NCBI GenBank assembly: GCA_041862375.1
Contig: JBGVTE010000065.1
Location: 2,540 to 66,539 of the forward strand
Length of the DNA stretch: 64,000 bases
Direction: 5' to 3'
Source of the DNA: Candidatus Aminicenantaceae bacterium
GTDB lineage: Bacteria; Acidobacteriota; Aminicenantia; Aminicenantales; Aminicenantaceae
A program made the position numbers and the translations under genes. Positions within the stretch are counted from its first letter, which is position 1; every line of letters starts with the position of its first letter. Below, piece by piece: positions 7,201 to 61,471 of this stretch. Under the pieces are notes generated by a model. The model had not been told where the DNA came from. It was given only the letters and a program-made list of their open reading frames with translations, and made no database searches.

Positions 7201-8670
7201 CTAAAACTGGACAAAGATTGGGTTCGAAATTAATTTTCTGTTCTTTCTATCTCTCACATCTAAACGGTAATATATTTTTTTCCCTGGTTCAAAAATATAA
7301 TCCTGAAAATTTATACTTATGGGAGTCTTGCCGGAGAAACTTCTTAAAAGCTCTCCGTATCGAATAAGCCTGACTGTCAAATTATTTTCCCTTTCTATTC
7401 CAGAGGAAGAGATTGAAATGTTTATTGTTGGATGACCTTTAGAAACTATCTCTTCTCCCATTACCGCCTTGCGTGATGTTTCAGAAACATAAATTGAGAA
7501 TTCTTCAAGTACAAGTTGTGGTAAATCAACATTTCCCCGATAAGCATACATCCTGCCTTTTTTTAAGGCATTTAAAATGGCATTTTTTGTTTTGTTTTTT
7601 ACCAGAAATACAGTAGGAAAATTTCCTAATCTCTCCCCGGCAGAACCATCTTCATGAAAATCGGCTGAAGATATTCCCCAGACCGGACTTTTTCTCAACC
7701 CGGAGCAGTATTCTTTTAAAATCCTGTCCCATATATTGCCTGGTTCTGTAACAGTTATGGTATCTCCATACAGAGCGGCAAAGCCAGTATAACTTTTAGA
7801 CTCTACCAAGGTATGAGGGTAAGGATGAGTTTCTCTGAACACAGATCCTAATCTTCCTCGGCCTGACCTCGCTTCAGGATGATTCCAAAAAACCATTCCC
7901 CCTCGAGAGTTTACATAATCTATCAACAACTGGTAAGGCAAAATTCCTTGTGGTCCATGATACTGATCAAAGGGGGAGCTTTTAAAAAGGTGGTTATTAA
8001 AAATAAGAAGAAGAAAAAATATGAAAATGATGATTCCAGAGTATCTGATAGCTTTCCGAGCTCTTAACATAAAAAGGCCGATTATCAGGGGAATAAATAA
8101 TAGAAAAAAGCCGACAGAGATCAATGAAGTGACATACTTTGTGGAACAACCGTTGTGGAGAATTGGCAATTCTCTGTAATCCCTGGGATTTTCGAGACCC
8201 ACTATTAACAGATGCTTTTCCCAATCACAAACGGTCAGATTTTTTTTGAAATAGTTTCCTTTCCAGTAATAAAAAGGCGAAGATTCTGCACCTGGAATTA
8301 AAATCATTTCCGGATATTTCTTTGAAACTGAAGAAATCGTATTCAGGTAATTCTCAGGTTTTCCTTTATTGATTGAAGGCTTTTCCACCTTTTTTTTCAG
8401 AATATTCTGAAAGGGACGTACTCCGTATTCCAATGTCATCCTGTCATGGTCATTTATAAAAAGCACATTAAATCCTCTTTTTTTAGCCAGTTTTACAAGA
8501 TGTTCAAGCGAGTGAGCTCCGTCGCCGAAATCAGTGTGGATATCAATAAGGCCAGCGACCTGAATATATTCGTCATCAAATCCAAAACTATTTATAAGTC
8601 CCCCTACAGTAACTACAATCATAATAAGAATAAATTTTTTAATATGATTGTTCATTATACTAAGTAACAA
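7201..8670 (-). CDS. Membrane-anchored PHP-family metallophosphoesterase
   Basis: DIHTDFGDG, INDHD, GAE, NHPE and SADFH PHP metal motifs; N-terminal hydrophobic segment plus two internal TM helices. Confidence 0.75.
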   Translation of the reverse strand: MLLSIMNNHIKKFILIMIVVTVGGLINSFGFDDEYIQVAGLIDIHTDFGDGAHSLEHLVKLAKKRGFNVLFINDHDRMTLEYGVRPFQNILKKKVEKPSINKGKPENYLNTISSVSKKYPEMILIPGAESSPFYYWKGNYFKKNLTVCDWEKHLLIVGLENPRDYRELPILHNGCSTKYVTSLISVGFFLLFIPLIIGLFMLRARKAIRYSGIIIFIFFLLLIFNNHLFKSSPFDQYHGPQGILPYQLLIDYVNSRGGMVFWNHPEARSGRGRLGSVFRETHPYPHTLVESKSYTGFAALYGDTITVTEPGNIWDRILKEYCSGLRKSPVWGISSADFHEDGSAGERLGNFPTVFLVKNKTKNAILNALKKGRMYAYRGNVDLPQLVLEEFSIYVSETSRKAVMGEEIVSKGHPTINISISSSGIERENNLTVRLIRYGELLRSFSGKTPISINFQDYIFEPGKKIYYRLDVRDRKNRKLISNPIFVQF

Positions 8671-8712
8671 TTATCCTAGTATTAAAAGTTAATATTGAAA
8701 AGTTAAAATAGT

Positions 8713-9024
8713 AAGCATCTTTTTTTCCGTGATAAGGAAAGACAAGCGTGGGTATACGGTGAAGAAGGTCGTATGAAGTAAAGCTCAGGCAGTGGGTTCA
8801 AAAACACGCAACTTTTCCCCCAGCGAAGTAAAAGTTGCTCGGTTTCAGGCTTCGCTCTCCTCTCCACAGAGAGGAACCATGCCCGCTCAGCCTTCAAACG
8901 GCTTTTTACACCCACATGCCTTCGCCAAACATCTTTAGCGCTGGGGCAAAGCGAGCGTGCCTTCAAGCCGAATGCCCATCGCTTAATGACTATTTTAATT
9001 TTCATCACGGAAAAAAAGATGCTT
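8713..9024. mobile_element. MITE-like element A, 312 bp, perfect 21-bp terminal inverted repeats
   Basis: AAGCATCTTTTTTTCCGTGAT (8713-8733) is the exact reverse complement of 9004-9024; interior is visibly GC-richer than the flanks with several hairpins; partial copies elsewhere in the window. Confidence 0.75.
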
Positions 9025-9111
9025 CAGTTAAAGTATAAAATTTCAGTTGCATTAATACCATTTCTATTATATGTAAATAGCTGTAATACAAAAAGGCATG
9101 AATTTATAAAT

Positions 9112-9141
9112 TTGACTTGTTTAATATTTTTTTTATATACT
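9112..9141 (+). promoter_or_regulatory. Sigma70-type promoter for the ATPase/HD-GYP genes
   Basis: TTGACT (9112-9117), 18-bp spacer, TATACT (9136-9141). Confidence 0.55.
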
Positions 9142-9196
9142 TCTTAGTAAATCAGCTCATTGAAAGAAAATAACTAGAAGTTTTTTAAATAAAGCT

Positions 9197-10000
9197 ATGT
9201 ATGAAAGCCACTGGGGTCTGAGGGAAAAGCCATTCGAGAACACGCCTGATCCCCGATTCATGTATTATTCACATGAACACCTGGAAGCTGCAACAAGATT
9301 GACCTACGCAATCAAGGAACGCAAGGGAGCAGCTTTACTGACCGGCGATTATGGCTGTGGAAAAACAATTATAAGCAGACTGATTTTTGAAATATTACCT
9401 CAGGATAAATATGAAATAGGCCTCGTTACCAATCCTATGCTGAGCTCAATTGACCTTCTTAGAGAAATTTGCTTTGAATTGGATATAAGGCTTTCTCCAG
9501 ATTCAACAAAACCTCAAATATTAAAAGACCTCAATAACAATTTTTACGAAAATATGAATAATGACAAAGAAAGTGTTATTATGATAGACGAAGCCCATAC
9601 TATCAAGGACACGGACACATTTGAGGAATTGAGGCTTCTCTTGAATTTTCAGCTCAACGAAAGGTTTCTCATGACGCTTGTACTCATCGGGCAGCCCGAA
9701 CTGAGGAATAAAATAGATAATCTTCAATCATTCAAACAGAGAATATCGATAATGTATCATATAAATCCCTTGAGTAAGAGCGACACTGAAAAGTACATAG
9801 CTCACAGATTAAGTAAGGCCGGTGTTGTAAGAGAAATCTTTTTACCAGCTTCCCTAAAATTAATTTGGGAAAGATCCGAAGGAATTCCTCGAGTGATAAA
9901 TACTATCTGTGACATGTGCTTACTCACAGGATTTACTAGAAAACTTAATGTTATAAACGAAGAAGTAGCAAAACAAATTATCAATGATTTAGGTAGTTAA
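9197..10000 (+). CDS. ExeA/GspA-like AAA ATPase (type seen with PEP-CTERM/EPS loci)
   Basis: MY..HWGL.EKPF..TPDP.F, Walker A GDYGCGKT, Walker B IMIDEAH, LIGQPEL, GIPR.IN..CD. Confidence 0.88.
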   Translation: MYESHWGLREKPFENTPDPRFMYYSHEHLEAATRLTYAIKERKGAALLTGDYGCGKTIISRLIFEILPQDKYEIGLVTNPMLSSIDLLREICFELDIRLSPDSTKPQILKDLNNNFYENMNNDKESVIMIDEAHTIKDTDTFEELRLLLNFQLNERFLMTLVLIGQPELRNKIDNLQSFKQRISIMYHINPLSKSDTEKYIAHRLSKAGVVREIFLPASLKLIWERSEGIPRVINTICDMCLLTGFTRKLNVINEEVAKQIINDLGS

Positions 10001-19822: not shown

Positions 19823-20428
19823 ATGAAACACATAAAACTTTTAATAAAGAAATTAGGGTATAACCAATTGAGAAATAAACTATATAATGAGTTTATTGAA
19901 ACAGTACTACATCCTTTTGCAGTCTACGGCAAAATTTCTATTTCTGAAGGTTCTTTTTTAATGAAATTAGTTAGAGAAACTCAAGCTTTTCCAGGCCCGA
20001 TTATTGAAGTAGGAACTCTATTTGGATATTCAACAATAACATTAATCTACGCCAAGGATCCTAGAAAGAAGTTGATAACCGTGGATGATTACAGCTGGAA
20101 TCCATGCGGACTTGGTAGTAGTATTCACTTTGATCTTACCAAAGAAATCTTGAAAGAAGCTGTAGAAAAATATTCTGTTCATTCGTTAAAAATGAATAAA
20201 CAAGAATTTTATAAGACTTATGATGAGACCTCTCCTTCGCTCGTTTTTTTGGATGCTGACCATTCTTACGAATCTACTTTAGAGGATTTAAAATGGGCAA
20301 AGCGTGTTGGTGCTAAAGTTATTTGTGGGCATGACTATAAGGAACAGACTCCTGGAGTGATTCAAGCTGTGAATGAAGTATGTGGTGGAGCACCTTCGCG
20401 AGTCCATGAATCCATATTTGTACTCTAA
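19823..20428 (+). CDS. Class I SAM-dependent methyltransferase (Methyltransf_24-like)
   Basis: IIEVGTLFGYST, VFLDADHSYE, ICGHDY. Confidence 0.85.
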   Translation: MKHIKLLIKKLGYNQLRNKLYNEFIETVLHPFAVYGKISISEGSFLMKLVRETQAFPGPIIEVGTLFGYSTITLIYAKDPRKKLITVDDYSWNPCGLGSSIHFDLTKEILKEAVEKYSVHSLKMNKQEFYKTYDETSPSLVFLDADHSYESTLEDLKWAKRVGAKVICGHDYKEQTPGVIQAVNEVCGGAPSRVHESIFVL

Positions 20429-34966: not shown

Positions 34967-36388
34967 CTATATGGTATGATTTAATATCCTTTCGGCAGTT
35001 GAAGCTATTAAATCCCATGCTTCCTTCACATGCTTTTCTTCAGTAGTTCTCGAGCCGATAGCCATTCGCAGGACATATCTTCCTTTTAAAGTGGTATGAG
35101 TTAAGAATACCTTGCCAGTCCGGTTGAGGCTATCCAGTAATTTACGGTTCAGTTTATCTAGCTCATCCTCTTTTCTGCCGTCATTCAAGCGGAAACAGAC
35201 CAAGCTCAGATTAACCGGCGCCATGAGCTCGAAGTGCCCGTGCTCCTCTATCCATCTTTTAAAAATCTGTGCTAATCGAATATGTTCTCTTACCATATTT
35301 TGGAGTCCTTCGACACCATAGGATCGAATTACAAACCACAATTTCAGTGCTCTGAATCTTCTTCCCAGCTGAATACCCCAGTCCCTGAAATTTTTCACTT
35401 GATCATCAAGGCCAGTTTTTAAATACTCTGGATGGATTTCGAAAGTTCTGATAAGCGCTCCGGGATCTTTTACAAAATAGACTGAACAGTCAAAGTTAGT
35501 AAACATCCACTTGTGAGGATTAAAAACAAATGAATCTATGTACTCGGCTCCATCGAGCATCGCTTCCTTCTCAGGAAGCATTGCTGCTGTGCCTGCAAAA
35601 GCAGCATCAACATGGAGCCACAGGCCATGACTGCGACAGATCCTGCCCACGGCTTGCAGTGGGTCTATTGCAGTCGACGATGTTGTTCCCAGAGTAGCTA
35701 CCACACAGGCAGGATGCAATCCTCTTTTTTTATCCTGAATCACTGCTTCTTCAAGTTTCTGAGGAAGCATGACATATGTATCGTCTGTAGGAATGTAGCG
35801 TAGGTTTTCTTTTCCGAAGCCTGCAATTTTCACTCCTTTTTCTATGCTTGAATGGGCCTCCTCTGAGGCATACACTATGAGGGAATTTTTCAGACCCTTT
35901 AGGTTTGATTCAAACTTTGTTGCATTTTCTCTTGCTGTAAGGAGGGCACAGAGTGTTGCAGTAGAGGCTGTATCCTGGATTACGCCAACCATTCTTTCAG
36001 GAAGTCCGAGCATTTTACGTAGCCATTCAAGAACCACTTCTTCCAATTCAGCCGCGGCTGGAGATGTCTGCCAGACCATACACTGAGCGCCTAGAGTCGC
36101 TGTTAATAATTCTGCCAGAATAGAAGGCGGACTGTTATTGGCTGGGAAATAAGCAAACCATGATGGGTGCTGCCAGTGAGTGATTCCAGGCATTATGATC
36201 TCTTTGAAATCTTCGAATATCTTTCCCATGGGCTCCCCCTTTTGTGGTGGATCATCAGGTAAACTTTTTTTAATATCTCCAGGTTCTACCTGCGACATTA
36301 CAGGAAACTCCGCTACTTCAGTCATGTACTCTGCAGCCCAATCAATAAGTTTATAGCCATATTGCCTGAAAAGTTCTTTATCCATCAT
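34967..36388 (-). CDS. Group II PLP-dependent aromatic L-amino acid decarboxylase-like
   Basis: PGITHWQHP..FAYFP, SPAA.ELE, HSS.EK, GTTS, HVDAA, FNPHKW, LGRRFRALKLW. Confidence 0.92.
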   Translation of the reverse strand: MMDKELFRQYGYKLIDWAAEYMTEVAEFPVMSQVEPGDIKKSLPDDPPQKGEPMGKIFEDFKEIIMPGITHWQHPSWFAYFPANNSPPSILAELLTATLGAQCMVWQTSPAAAELEEVVLEWLRKMLGLPERMVGVIQDTASTATLCALLTARENATKFESNLKGLKNSLIVYASEEAHSSIEKGVKIAGFGKENLRYIPTDDTYVMLPQKLEEAVIQDKKRGLHPACVVATLGTTSSTAIDPLQAVGRICRSHGLWLHVDAAFAGTAAMLPEKEAMLDGAEYIDSFVFNPHKWMFTNFDCSVYFVKDPGALIRTFEIHPEYLKTGLDDQVKNFRDWGIQLGRRFRALKLWFVIRSYGVEGLQNMVREHIRLAQIFKRWIEEHGHFELMAPVNLSLVCFRLNDGRKEDELDKLNRKLLDSLNRTGKVFLTHTTLKGRYVLRMAIGSRTTEEKHVKEAWDLIASTAERILNHTI

Positions 36389-36851: not shown

Positions 36852-37044
36852 ATATAATGGAGATTTTTATATTTTCTTTATTTTCCGCTAATTCTATTTC
36901 CAATGTAACAATCATACTCCTAATGCTGTATCACTTCCATATGATACCACATAAAAATTTTACTCATTCTTGTTCCTGCCTTCTTAGGATAACATAAGGA
37001 CAAAATCGACCAGCCTCATTTTCTCATGAAGATGCTTACCTCTT

Positions 37045-37088
37045 CGCTGATGACTACTTCAGCTCTCATCACGGAAAAGAATATACTT
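37045..37088. repeat. Degenerate right-end copy of element A
   Basis: CGCTGATGACTACTTCAGCTCTCATCACGGAAAAGAATATACTT aligns by eye with 8980-9024. Confidence 0.55.
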
Positions 37089-37458: not shown

Positions 37459-39414
37459 ATGTTTAAAAAAATTTTTTTGATTGTCCTCGCTCTTATTTTA
37501 CTTTTTTTCAACACTTACGCTGAAGAAGCCCAAGAAAGCGGTAAAAAGAAAAAACCTCCTTCTCTCCACTATGATGTGGTTGTAACAGCGACTCGTATAG
37601 AAACCCCTGCCAGGGAAATTGCAAGCTCGATTACTGTCATAACAAGGGAAGACTTGGAGAGAATGAAAAAGTCAACAGTTCTTGAAGTACTTAACGAGGT
37701 TTTAGGTGTTACGATTGTTCAAAATGGAGGCACAGGAGGAGCTGCATCTGTGCTCCTTCGGGGAGCGAATTCAGAACACACCCTGGTGATGATGGATGGA
37801 GTTGAGCTCAATGACCCAATCACTCCTTCTCGCTCTTATGACCTCGCTCATTTTTCATTAGATGACATTGAGCGCATCGAGGTTCTTCGAGGTCCCCAGA
37901 GCACACTCTATGGCTCGGATGCCCTGGGCGGAGTTATTAACATCATTTCAAGAAAAGGAAAGGGAAAGGCAAAGGTACGATTTTCAAGCTATGGTGGCTC
38001 TTTTGGAACTATCACAGGGAATGCTGGAATAAGCGGATCTGTGGATAAATTTGACTACTCTCTGGGAACATCTTATTTCCATAATGCTGGATTCTCCTCA
38101 GCAAGCACTGCCTACAAGGGAAACAAAGAAGAGGATGGTTACCGGAACCTCACACTTTCAGCAAGATTTGGCTATCGTCCTTCAAGCAACCTCGATATCA
38201 ACTTCATTGTACGATCATTGGATACAAAAATTGATATTGATAATTTTGGCGGAGCTTACGGGGATGACCCTAACAACATTCAGGATTACCGCGCCTTGTT
38301 CCTTAAGGGAGAAATCCGGAGACTCTTCCTTCAAAACCGGTGGGAGCAAAAATTAATCCTTTCCTTTGTTAATTACAACCGAAAATATGATAATCCTACA
38401 GATGCGTCTCATCCTTTAGATTCTGATAGATCAAAGTTCAAAAGTAAGCTGTGGAAGCTGGACTGGCAGCATAATATTTTCCTCCATGAAACAAGCACTC
38501 TGACTTTTGGAGCTGAATATCAGCAGGAACAGGGAGAATCAGAATACCATTCAGAAGGAGTATGGGGTCCTTTTTCAAGTACTTTCCCGCTTCGAAAATC
38601 ACACCAAAAAGGATTCTATATCCAGGATCAAATCAGGATAAAAGATCAATTTTTTGCCGCTGTCGGAGCACGCTTCGATCATCACAGTCAGGCTGGCACA
38701 GCAGTAACCTACAGAATCGCTCCTGCATATTTCATCAAGCAGACAGGGACAAAGTTAAAGGCAACTTACGGAAGTGGTTTTAAATCGCCTTCTCTCTACC
38801 AGCTCTATGCACCTGGAACAGCATGGGGTCCTATCGGAAATGAAAATCTAGAGCCTGAAAAATCAACAGGCTGGGATGCCGGCGTTGAACAGTATTTATT
38901 TCAGGATAAGCTGATGTTTGGCGCGACATATTTCAAAAACAGCTTTGAAAACCTCATTGATTTTGATGATGTACAAGGTTTCATAAATATTTCAAAATCC
39001 TCCTCTAAAGGCGCTGAATTCATTTTTCAAGCACAGCCGATCAAAAGTATTCTTATCACCGCTTCCTATACCAGGAATGAGGCAATGGATGAAGATGAAA
39101 ATACACCTCTTTTGAGACGGCCAAAAGATAAATTCACCTCCATGGTGAATTATGGTTTTCTAGAGAAAGGAAACATCGCTCTTTCATTAATATATGTGGG
39201 AGAGAGGGAAGATATGGATTTTAGTATCTGGCCGTCAAAGAGGGTAACTCTGCCATCTTACACTTTGCTAAATGCTACTGCTTCGTTCAACTTCAATGCG
39301 AACATTCAAATTTTCGGGCGCTTGGATAATGTCCTCAATGAAAAGTATGAAATGATTAAAGGGTACGGAACATCCGGTTTTTCTGCTTACGGAGGAGTAA
39401 AACTCGTCTTTTAA
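37459..39414 (+). CDS. btuB: TonB-dependent cobalamin receptor BtuB-like
   Basis: Signal peptide, VVVTATR TonB box region, plug motifs LRG...HTLV..DGV and IERIEVLRGPQSTLYGSDA.GGVINI, C-terminal F; downstream of the B12 riboswitch. Confidence 0.88.
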   Translation: MFKKIFLIVLALILLFFNTYAEEAQESGKKKKPPSLHYDVVVTATRIETPAREIASSITVITREDLERMKKSTVLEVLNEVLGVTIVQNGGTGGAASVLLRGANSEHTLVMMDGVELNDPITPSRSYDLAHFSLDDIERIEVLRGPQSTLYGSDALGGVINIISRKGKGKAKVRFSSYGGSFGTITGNAGISGSVDKFDYSLGTSYFHNAGFSSASTAYKGNKEEDGYRNLTLSARFGYRPSSNLDINFIVRSLDTKIDIDNFGGAYGDDPNNIQDYRALFLKGEIRRLFLQNRWEQKLILSFVNYNRKYDNPTDASHPLDSDRSKFKSKLWKLDWQHNIFLHETSTLTFGAEYQQEQGESEYHSEGVWGPFSSTFPLRKSHQKGFYIQDQIRIKDQFFAAVGARFDHHSQAGTAVTYRIAPAYFIKQTGTKLKATYGSGFKSPSLYQLYAPGTAWGPIGNENLEPEKSTGWDAGVEQYLFQDKLMFGATYFKNSFENLIDFDDVQGFINISKSSSKGAEFIFQAQPIKSILITASYTRNEAMDEDENTPLLRRPKDKFTSMVNYGFLEKGNIALSLIYVGEREDMDFSIWPSKRVTLPSYTLLNATASFNFNANIQIFGRLDNVLNEKYEMIKGYGTSGFSAYGGVKLVF

Positions 39415-60404: not shown

Positions 60405-61397
60405 ATGAGATTAAAAATTCTTTCTGGCAATGATGTAAAGAAGGCTGTGAGCATGGCTCAGGCCATAAGCGCGGTGAAAGAAGCATACATACAGCTTTCT
60501 TCGGGAAAGGCAGAAATGCCGTTAAGAACTTCTGTCCCAGTTGAAAAACAGAAGGGGATAACTCTTTTCATGCCTTCCTATCTGGCTGAAAGCCAGGCCA
60601 TGGGAGCAAAAGTTGTGTCAGTTTTCCCTCAAAACCTGGATAAAGGCATGCCCACGATTCATGCCGTTGTTGTAGTATTGGATGCAGAGACAGGACGCCC
60701 TGTGGCACTATTGGATGGAACATATCTGACAGCCCTTCGGACCGGAGCTGCCTCAGGTGCAGCAACAGACCTTTTGGCAAGAAATGATGCACGTGTTGCT
60801 GCAATATTTGGAGCAGGCGCCCAGGCACGTACTCAACTCGTAGCAGTTTGTACAGTAAGGACTGTAGAGAAAGTCTGGATTTTTGACACACAGCCCGGAA
60901 TTGCAGAAGCCTGGGCAGCAGAAATGAAATTCAGGGGTAGTCCAATCCCATCGGCAATTTTTGTGGCCGAATCACCAGCTCAGGCTGCACGGGAAGCAGA
61001 CATAATCTGTACTGCAACCACCTCTTATGAGCCAGTATTCGAGGATAAGGACTTAAAGCCTGGTGTTCATATCAATGCCATAGGCGCTTACACCCCTGAT
61101 ATGAAGGAAATTCCTGTTGCAACTGTCATCCGTTCCAAGCTCATCGTCGATTCACGCCAGGCATGTCTTGCAGAAGCTGGTGATATAATCATTCCTCTCA
61201 AGGATGGGCTTATTGCCGAGGAACACATCCACGGCGAGATTGGAGATGTGGCAGCCGGGAGGATTCCAGGAAGAGAATCAGATGAGGAGGTAACTTTATT
61301 CAAGTCAGTTGGATTGGCTGTTCAGGATGTAGCTGTAGCAGAGCTCGTGAGAGCACAAGCTGAAGAGATGAACCTTGGATTCGAAGTCGATATCTGA
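60405..61397 (+). CDS. Ornithine cyclodeaminase / mu-crystallin family protein
   Basis: MP, KVVSV.P.N, LTALRTGAAS, GAG.QA, HINAIG, KSVGLA.QD. Confidence 0.92.
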   Translation: MRLKILSGNDVKKAVSMAQAISAVKEAYIQLSSGKAEMPLRTSVPVEKQKGITLFMPSYLAESQAMGAKVVSVFPQNLDKGMPTIHAVVVVLDAETGRPVALLDGTYLTALRTGAASGAATDLLARNDARVAAIFGAGAQARTQLVAVCTVRTVEKVWIFDTQPGIAEAWAAEMKFRGSPIPSAIFVAESPAQAAREADIICTATTSYEPVFEDKDLKPGVHINAIGAYTPDMKEIPVATVIRSKLIVDSRQACLAEAGDIIIPLKDGLIAEEHIHGEIGDVAAGRIPGRESDEEVTLFKSVGLAVQDVAVAELVRAQAEEMNLGFEVDI

Positions 61398-61471
61398 GCT
61401 TCCTTCATATGACCTCTTCACCGCATACCTCCTCGCTTGTTTATCATTTATCATGGAAAAAAAAGATGCTT
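61395..61471 (-). repeat. Truncated left-end copy of element A (77 bp, inverted)
   Basis: Reverse complement AAGCATC...CCATGATAA...ACAAGCG...GTATGCGGTGAAGAGGTCATATGAAGGAAGCTCA aligns with 8713-8787. Confidence 0.75.

Follow-up and report, generated by a model that had tools for sequence, protein, structure and literature searches.

Element A, a short repeat in the genome of an uncultured bacterium, is very probably a MITE, or non-autonomous transposon, of an ISKra4-type, Mutator-like DDE insertion sequence. Taking the reading as a whole, we consider it likely that this MITE carries a separate folded module, one that propagates and is selected at the DNA level and gains copies mainly by riding in MITEs. 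Element A lies in the window, by which we mean the entire 64,000-nt stretch of DNA that was analyzed (contig C65:2540-66539 of a draft assembly of 3.32 Mb in 148 contigs, hereafter G000). The coordinates of its parts, of the module and of the neighboring features are collected in Table 1.

Table 1. Features of element A, its module and its surroundings, in positions of the window.
Feature	Positions	Strand	Basis or remark
CehA/McbA-type hydrolase-like gene	7201-8670	-	resemblance
Left TSD copy, 9 bp, GTTAAAATA	8702-8710	.	8/9 match to 9027-9035
Predicted ORF of 101 aa overlapping element A	8703-9008	-	ORF call
Left end: 2 variable terminal nt (GT) and 21-nt TIR AAGCATCTTTTTTTCCGTGAT	8711-8733	+	arm match, TSD offset; loose ends of other copies start at 8703-8711
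Left subterminal arm, the 3' part of an outer, interrupted module copy	8734-8778	-	97% identity to the 217-bp form over 8713-8778
Inner, complete ~150-nt three-way-junction module	8783-8925	+	R1, 151.4 bits, E 2.8e-40
P1 closing stem	8787-8797 with 8910-8921	+	module model
P2 hairpin, loop 8817-8829 (CCCCAGCGAG)	8808-8816 with 8830-8838	+	module model
Invariant blocks AGCGA, TCGCTC and TGCCCGCTC	8821-8825, 8852-8857 and 8880-8888	+	copy alignments
P4	8847-8851 with 8889-8893	+	cross-phylum alignment
P3	8858-8864 with 8869-8875	+	module model
Junction and right subterminal arm, the 5' part of the outer module copy; holds CGCTGGGG at 8939-8946	8926-9003	-	99% identity to the 217-bp form over 8940-9024
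Right end: 21-nt TIR and 2 terminal nt (CA)	9004-9026	-	arm match, TSD offset; loose ends behind 9026
Right TSD copy, 9 bp, GTTAAAGTA	9027-9035	.	8/9 match to 8702-8710
Promoter-like site TTGACT-18-TATACT, 10/12 consensus	9112-9141	+	upstream of the PEP-CTERM ATPase gene, 86 nt past element A
XrtA/PEP-CTERM system ATPase gene	9197-10000	+	TIGR03015, E 4.8e-68, below its cut-off
Partial copy of an older subfamily: one end, degenerate TIR (3 mismatches)	37037-37088	-	between divergent ORFs
Partial copy: a single ~78-nt end with 87-90% identity to members of the family	61394-61471	-	between an ORF stop and the next ORF

Ends, copies and transposase relatives of element A

The original prediction, made from the letters of the window, described perfect 21-bp TIRs enclosing a GC-richer interior, and both descriptions hold. 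The two arms (8713-8733 and 9004-9024, 21 nt each) are 100% complementary as inverted copies, and, if up to 3 mismatches are allowed, the window contains the TIR 21-mer 3 times, where 0.00 occurrences are expected from 100 shuffles. GC content is 0.52 inside the element compared with 0.22-0.27 in the flanks. Contrary to the description of an interior lacking any credible ORF, a predicted one of 101 aa on the minus strand (8703-9008) overlaps the element. GCCTTC occurs three times, as had been counted (starts 8890, 8918 and 8960), and the setting is indeed divergent, with element A between a gene on the minus strand (7201-8670) and one on the plus strand (9197-10000). The promoter-like site ahead of the latter matches the consensus and no more than that; shuffles contain no fewer sites of this kind.

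No clear target-site duplication (TSD) had been recognized, because the duplication is offset from the arms by two variable nucleotides. At element A a 9-bp direct repeat, 8/9 identical, lies 2 nt outside each arm (GTTAAAATA on the left and GTTAAAGTA on the right). When the complete copies of G000 were examined at this fixed 2-nt offset, at least 7 of the 9 positions matched in 21 of the 27 copies, 8 of them perfectly, whereas none of 26 copies reached that match in a control shifted by 30 nt. Including the 2 nt outside each arm, the true span of element A is 8711-9026, or 316 bp. These outermost 2 nt are variable among copies (GT/GG/TG at one end, CA/AC/CC/AT at the other), and many ends, not all, finish in a terminal C.

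The description of element A as an abundant, non-autonomous element is borne out by its own genome, where 108 sites match the TIR 21-mer with no more than 3 mismatches and where 27 pairs of plus and minus ends make up complete copies of 79-314 bp. Nine of these copies are of the 217-bp form, more than of any other, and four measure 312-314 bp. The short forms are internal-deletion derivatives. The repeat leaves its mark in assemblies as well: sample contigs from one DNA run break inside element A at 8739 and 8999, and depth at its ends is 1000-2400 against 17-19 in the unique flanks (60-130x). No contig bridging an empty site was found in two DNA runs, which yielded instead repeat-induced breaks and internal-deletion joints, the latter matching shorter family members. 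As for the three intergenic partial copies that had been placed in the same window, two are clear and intergenic (37037-37088 and 61394-61471), but the third is a 19-nt match inside an ORF (20186-20204, E 0.009) and is probably due to chance.

The ends of element A had not been recognized as those of a known IS family. Five loci in four genomes (G292, G015, G213 and G000), however, have remnants of an ISKra4-type transposase beside these ends, some 60 nt inward and all of them decayed. In G000, C91:24817-25218 resembles the C-terminal part of NF033572 (E 1.2e-6) and of NF033529 (E 7e-7), and a solo TIR lies about 60 nt past this match. A search for longer copies enclosing a transposase had been proposed; G292, a genome of the same family, contains a 1.31-kb element (L092:271-1579) with AAGCATC...CCGTGAT-type ends, a repeat of ~8-9 bp and a gene that is split. 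Its two ORFs have their best profile scores with ISKra4, ISH6 and ISLre2; the matches to NF033572 (ISKra4; E 1.2e-20 and 9.2e-11), best or near-best among the families, are under the curated NCBIfam cut-off of 205 bits because the transposase genes are split or broken. The G000 remnant is 65% identical to an L092 ORF (E 4.7e-37), and the same TIR also follows a transposase remnant in G015, G213 and G292:C26.

Transposases of this subfamily are ~340-370 aa, within a 1.3-kb IS, and are seen as broken genes alone. No intact one of the element A subfamily was found in the 151 sampled genomes, all close homologues being fragments, and inward of 14 solo ends in G000 there are host-like ORFs only and no transposase. 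Full-length ISKra4-family genes are present in 7 of the 151 genomes, with related ends (AAGCGTTTTTTTTCCTGC).

The published account of prokaryotic Mutator-like elements lists IR lengths of 18-39 bp and DR lengths of 8-9 bp. For the ISKra4 group it reports a conserved terminal cytosine and insertion ~16 bp ahead of sigma-A -35 boxes, on either side if both IRs are near-identical or symmetric (PMC3942029). The IR of element A, 21(+2) nt, and its DR of 9 bp are within the ranges stated there for the group. The element A family shares with the ISKra4 group (p-MULT 4, PMC3942029) the IR and DR lengths, the near-symmetric ends and the -35 targeting; element A differs in having no transposase and in carrying foreign cargo, and the terminal C stands at some family ends only. 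A literature search for MITEs of the ISKra4 group found no named one.

Targeting was assessed in 52 usable flanks of the 27 complete G000 copies, counting hexamers with at least 5 of 6 matches to TTGACA. Of the 52 flanks, 11 have such a hexamer beginning at +16 or +17, compared with a total of 23 hexamers at the other 43 offsets (~0.5 each), and several of those at +16/+17 are followed at 17-18 nt by a -10-like hexamer. This pattern fits family members sitting 15-16 bp upstream of -35 boxes, as the published account has it for the ISKra4 group (PMC3942029). Element A itself is not a clean case, with 4/6 hexamers only, at +19 and +21 (TTGCAT), and with its best promoter-like site 86 nt away.

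We infer that element A is mobilized in trans. A transposase supplied from elsewhere would recognize the 21(+2)-nt ends, duplicate 9 bp of the target and favor positions ~16 bp ahead of -35 boxes of the sigma-70 type, and such a preference for -35-proximal sites would account for the location of element A and its relatives in promoter-bearing spacers. The original prediction had proposed instead a MITE with ends of no known IS family, moved by an undescribed enzyme. That no intact autonomous copy turned up in G000 or in the 151 sampled relatives, and that bare modules occur without a known partner, speaks for such an enzyme. The same ends at ISKra4-type remnants refute the proposal for the TIR-bounded element, and the TSD length and promoter targeting match what is described of the ISKra4 group (PMC3942029). 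With remnants, duplication and targeting all fitting a described group, an undescribed enzyme is not needed for the TIR-bounded element, and we give this reading next to no credence.

The folded module in the interior

The interior of element A is a separate module and not leftover IS sequence. Its fold is a three-way junction, made of the long P1, the P2 hairpin and a P4-P3 arm, and the internal loop of that arm (TCGCTC / ACCNTGCCCGCTC) comprises two invariant blocks. The internal stems noticed at 8808-8816/8830-8838 and 8858-8864/8869-8875 are present and are the conserved helices P2 and P3. The RNA fold z-score of the inner module is -3.67.

A structured interior had been proposed together with a check for covariation, and the alignments provide it. 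RNAalifold found 28 pairs, 18 with double changes, in a first alignment of 21 copies from 10 genomes; a covariance model of the module, R1, was used for copy counts. Among 92 aligned copies, 95.0% of cells are paired, compared with 73.4% in shuffled copies and 44-58% with slid partners, and double changes occur at 28 of 28 pairs, in an alignment that was fitted to the model. The structure-blind MAFFT alignment of 47 cross-phylum copies gives 23 pairs, of which 20 are compensated, and adds helix P4, whose extension pairs are weak (Watson-Crick in 147 of 310 cells). The same behavior is seen within a single genome: 15 copies of G274 differ in 21% of the cells of inner P1 and 14% of those of P2, compared with 3.4% elsewhere, and the stems stay complementary. 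About 25 unpaired module bases are invariant across phyla. A candidate loop-junction pairing, AGCGA with TCGCU, would form a pseudoknot; both of its sides never vary among copies.

Rfam (release 15), the other check proposed for the interior, returned 0 matches at E<=1 over 8400-9400. When 20 diverse module copies were searched at E<=10, the result was 5 chance-level matches (E 5.4-8.8), far under the gathering scores. A literature search for covarying RNA motifs of Aminicenantes, Omnitrophota and Patescibacteria found nothing on this element.

The inner module of element A is nested backwards inside a second, interrupted module copy, which R1 matches on the minus strand at 8742-8986 (24.1 bits, E 1.6e-4). 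The two oppositely nested copies give rise to the long-range complement CCCCAGCG/CGCTGGGG, which had been listed among the internal stems: the complementarity is real, but it is a by-product of the nesting and not a conserved helix. Other members of the family differ in their interiors. The 217-bp MITE in G000 consists of the ends and one diverged module, and in the 284-288-bp forms P3 is swapped for a hairpin of 71-79 nt whose ends resemble those of module P1.

Occurrence of the module beyond element A

Evidence that the module leads an existence of its own comes from copies that do not share the ends of element A. When element A was compared by BLAST with 40 relatives, 26 matched, only at element positions ~58-238, with the ends unmatched. 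Bare module copies, in which unique sequence starts directly outside P1, are present in G000 (C67, C126 and C100) and also in G274, and the module lies inside MITEs with other ends in G020 (GGTTCTCTTCC...) and G007 (GGAGTTCCCCC...), so that it is found either bare or inside at least three different, unrelated end types. We regard the module as very probably an entity separate from the MITE. One bare copy lies between rpsN and rpsH in G274, where G302, of the same genus, has an empty spacer of 21 nt; the flanks of this filled and empty pair differ by 14%, and the spacer is not cleanly alignable. The copy in G274 is co-oriented with the ribosomal-protein operon. In an Omnitrophota single-cell record, modules in inverted orientation on both sides of a 1.7-kb stretch were considered as a transposon and rejected, the whole region being a perfect inverted duplication of 1843 nt, which we judge to be an amplification or assembly artifact.

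The family had been called lineage-specific. This does not hold for the interior module, which is spread across the order and also turns up in other phyla. R1 detects 38 copies in G000, and of the 151 genomes sampled from the order 98 contain the module, as do 48 of 60 genera; in the rest of the phylum sample it found none in 150 other genomes. Copy number reaches at least 89 in G274 and at least 60 in G007, and five closed or nearly closed genomes hold 7-63 copies each. Across phyla, a gapped pattern of the three invariant blocks was searched in a species-level genome collection and matched at least 123 stretches, where ~1.5 would be expected by chance by our own arithmetic. Among the matches listed are records titled Parcubacteria, Patescibacteria, Saccharibacteria, Portnoy-, Colwell-, Berkel- and Uhrbacteria, Omnitrophota and Planctomycetia.

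The copies in other-phylum records have their own stem sequences. Outside the order, one genome of 0.8 Mb carries 17 copies and one of 0.5 Mb carries 5, while two more carry 6 and 11. R2, the cross-phylum model, finds 1-13 copies in 8 of another 150 genomes sampled from the phylum to which the Parcubacteria-titled genome belongs. The distribution beyond the order is patchy and mobile-element-like. Some records labeled Eubacteriales or Actinomycetota carry Aminicenantes-type copies and were not counted as spread.

Mode of action and place among known repeats

Two counts bear on whether the fold is used as DNA or as RNA. In alignments fitted to the model, G·U cells are no commoner than A·C cells (36 versus 36 of 2192; 41 versus 45 in all rows), and orientation relative to flanking ORFs, judged with crude longest-ORF gene calls at 58 loci, is even (15 same/same, 12 opposite/opposite, 14 convergent and 14 divergent). 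The lack of a G·U excess and of an orientation bias, together with the lack of a RAYT or TnpB partner in the genomes searched, points to a selfish hairpin repeat at the DNA level. On the narrower proposition that the module acts at the DNA level rather than as RNA, we find the balance to be even.

We infer a DNA-level mode of action, with hitch-hiking in MITEs as the main route of spread. The module would be propagated and selected as DNA, its folded single strand or cruciform being bound by a putative factor in a REP-like manner. Its helices are maintained by strict Watson-Crick compensation, with ~25 unpaired bases invariant across phyla, and the module comes and goes between related genomes. 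Copies would be gained mainly by hitch-hiking in MITEs.

The same fold could be selected in the transcript, if the module were a functional structured RNA carried as MITE cargo, one that either acts in cis on processing, stability or termination or processes itself; self-processing could render insertions harmless inside operons and genes. The three-way junction with its invariant unpaired bases shared across phyla, the strong covariation and the fold z-score are all arguments for an RNA, as is a plus strand poor in stops in all three frames (each frame stop-free in 42-43 of 75 copies, compared with 30, 10 and 10 of 75 for the minus frames). So are two placements, a module copy of exactly 150 nt lying in frame inside the tgt ORF of a Portnoybacteria record and the co-oriented copy between rpsN and rpsH. 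Against these stand the G·U and orientation counts, the absence of a significant Rfam match for the 20 diverse copies, and the nesting of copies in each other and their occurrence in either orientation inside MITEs, and we consider an RNA function unlikely.

A long hairpin repeat kept by compensation, in dozens of copies with quasi-species-like stem variants per genome, also recalls a REPIN-type doublet moved as single-stranded DNA by a domesticated host Y1 (RAYT) transposase, and Y1_Tnp genes are common in the order, being found in 126 of 151 genomes. Yet 16 of the 20 Y1-negative genomes listed carry the module, including the closed G025 and the high-copy G010, G002, G009 and G284, and G444 has 13 copies and no Y1 match. 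In a set of five multi-copy genomes, Y1_Tnp is present in two. No module lies within several kb of the single RAYT-like genes in G000 (C84:25086-25409) and G274 (C1:154046 and C1:195952), and a branched module of ~150 nt is unlike a REP of 20-40 nt; mobilization of this kind strikes us as highly improbable. An IS200/IS605 TnpB partner (omega-RNA or PATE) is not supported, the TnpB zinc-ribbon PF07282 being over its cut-off in none of the five multi-copy genomes. It is rather doubtful, in our view, that the module is a structured nucleic acid of a new, cross-phylum class served by machinery of its own, whether a self-processing or protein-recruiting RNA that would render its carrier MITEs harmless within operons and even genes or a folded single-stranded DNA site for an unrecognized recombinase that would insert the module into hairpin tips, including those of its own copies.

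The reading of element A as an ISKra4-type MITE with a module acting as DNA invites comparison with known repeats. Correia elements (CREE) of Neisseria, ERIC, RUP and BOX are small, TIR-bounded, multicopy intergenic elements with long hairpins, and they can alter the expression of neighboring genes. In those elements the fold belongs to one family and one lineage, whereas the module recurs in MITEs with unrelated ends, occurs bare as well and crosses phyla. REP, BIME and REPIN sequences are palindromic repeats scattered through genomes and maintained by compensatory change; each genome has many variants, and neither strand nor orientation is preferred. The module is like them in these traits and unlike them in its ~150-nt length, its branching, its invariant junction blocks and the lack of a RAYT association in our searches. 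The in-frame copy within tgt of the Portnoybacteria record, a single verified case, resembles Rickettsia palindromic elements (RPE), but unlike these, most module copies are intergenic. We know of no repeat or RNA family that accounts for this combination of traits, and the cargo is an undescribed cross-phylum structured repeat.

The TIR-bounded element is of an ordinary kind and provides an example, from an uncultured lineage, of a MITE derived from a promoter-targeting Mutator-like IS. Promoter targeting would explain the build-up of such repeats in promoter spacers, for instance ahead of PEP-CTERM/EPS genes. What is unusual is the cargo, one fold of ~150 nt reused in unrelated MITEs, bare and nested in itself, in up to ~90 copies per 3-Mb genome and also in ultra-small Parcubacteria-type genomes. 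The carriers of the module and its invariant positions are now defined well enough for testing. Should it turn out to have a function, or an enzyme dedicated to it, the module would stand for a widespread aspect of bacterial genomes that has gone unstudied.

Open frames and genic surroundings

Nearly all of element A, the 312-bp MITE with ISKra4-type ends, is covered by a 101-aa open reading frame with a GTG start, and stop codons are unusually scarce in all three plus-strand frames of the module, the ~150-nt three-way-junction repeat inside it. An in-frame module copy of exactly 150 nt is held by the ORF of tgt (queuine tRNA-ribosyltransferase-like) in a Portnoybacteria-titled record; this copy lacks a stop codon and is bordered by ...SGGYQVFSLGEK before and VGFVKITDKGVEF... 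after. A bare module, oriented with the operon and followed by a T-run, lies in the rpsN-rpsH spacer of a ribosomal-protein operon in genome G274, and the same spacer in G302, of the same genus, is only 21 nt. Divergent ORFs flank an older-subfamily partial copy in the window, and this is the second divergent-promoter spacer there that the family of element A has entered.

Coordinates of the features described (G, genome; C, contig; L, locus; G000, source genome)
Feature	Location	Strand or orientation
101-aa ORF	window 8703-9008	-
Partial copy	window 37037-37088	
Flanking ORF	window 34967-36388	-
Flanking ORF	window 37459-39414	+
tgt-borne module	L309:5014-5162 = G308:C18:7813-7961; also L229	
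rpsN-rpsH module	L108:1501-1654 (G274:C55)	operon-co-oriented
21-nt rpsN-rpsH spacer	L179, G302:C147 around 1483	
MITEs of other end types with module	L042-L045 (G020); L099-L127 odd numbers (G007)	
284-288-bp members	G000 C78:14627-14914; C40:44084-44371; C112:70-355; C98:19850-20133	
Tandem or close inverted module pairs	G274:C7:111445-111739; G274:C33:3558-3852; G229:C6:785038-785533	
Inverted duplication	L307:1-3964 (G307:C11:15500-19463)	
Full-length ISKra4-family loci	L084-L090 (G004, G231, G192, G305, G266, G232, G205)	

ISKra4-family genes and an inverted duplication

Of the 151 genomes sampled from the order, 7 contain full-length ISKra4-family transposase genes with ends of a related pattern, AAGCGTTTTTTTTCCTGC; many of these genes are on very short contigs. 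A perfect inverted duplication of 1843 nt in an Omnitrophota single-cell assembly resembles a composite transposon, and is probably the product of amplification or an assembly chimera.

Ends and arrangement of the module

The module of element A is also enclosed by MITEs of two further end types, GGTTCTCTTCCATTTTGTGTGGG and GGAGTTCCCCCATTTTTTCTAAGC, and modules occur as pairs, both in directly abutting tandem and inverted at close spacing. Family members of 284-288 bp in the source genome carry a 71-79-nt hairpin in place of the P3 hairpin, and the ends of this replacement are similar to those of P1, the long closing stem of the module; the substitution looks like an additional layer of nesting.
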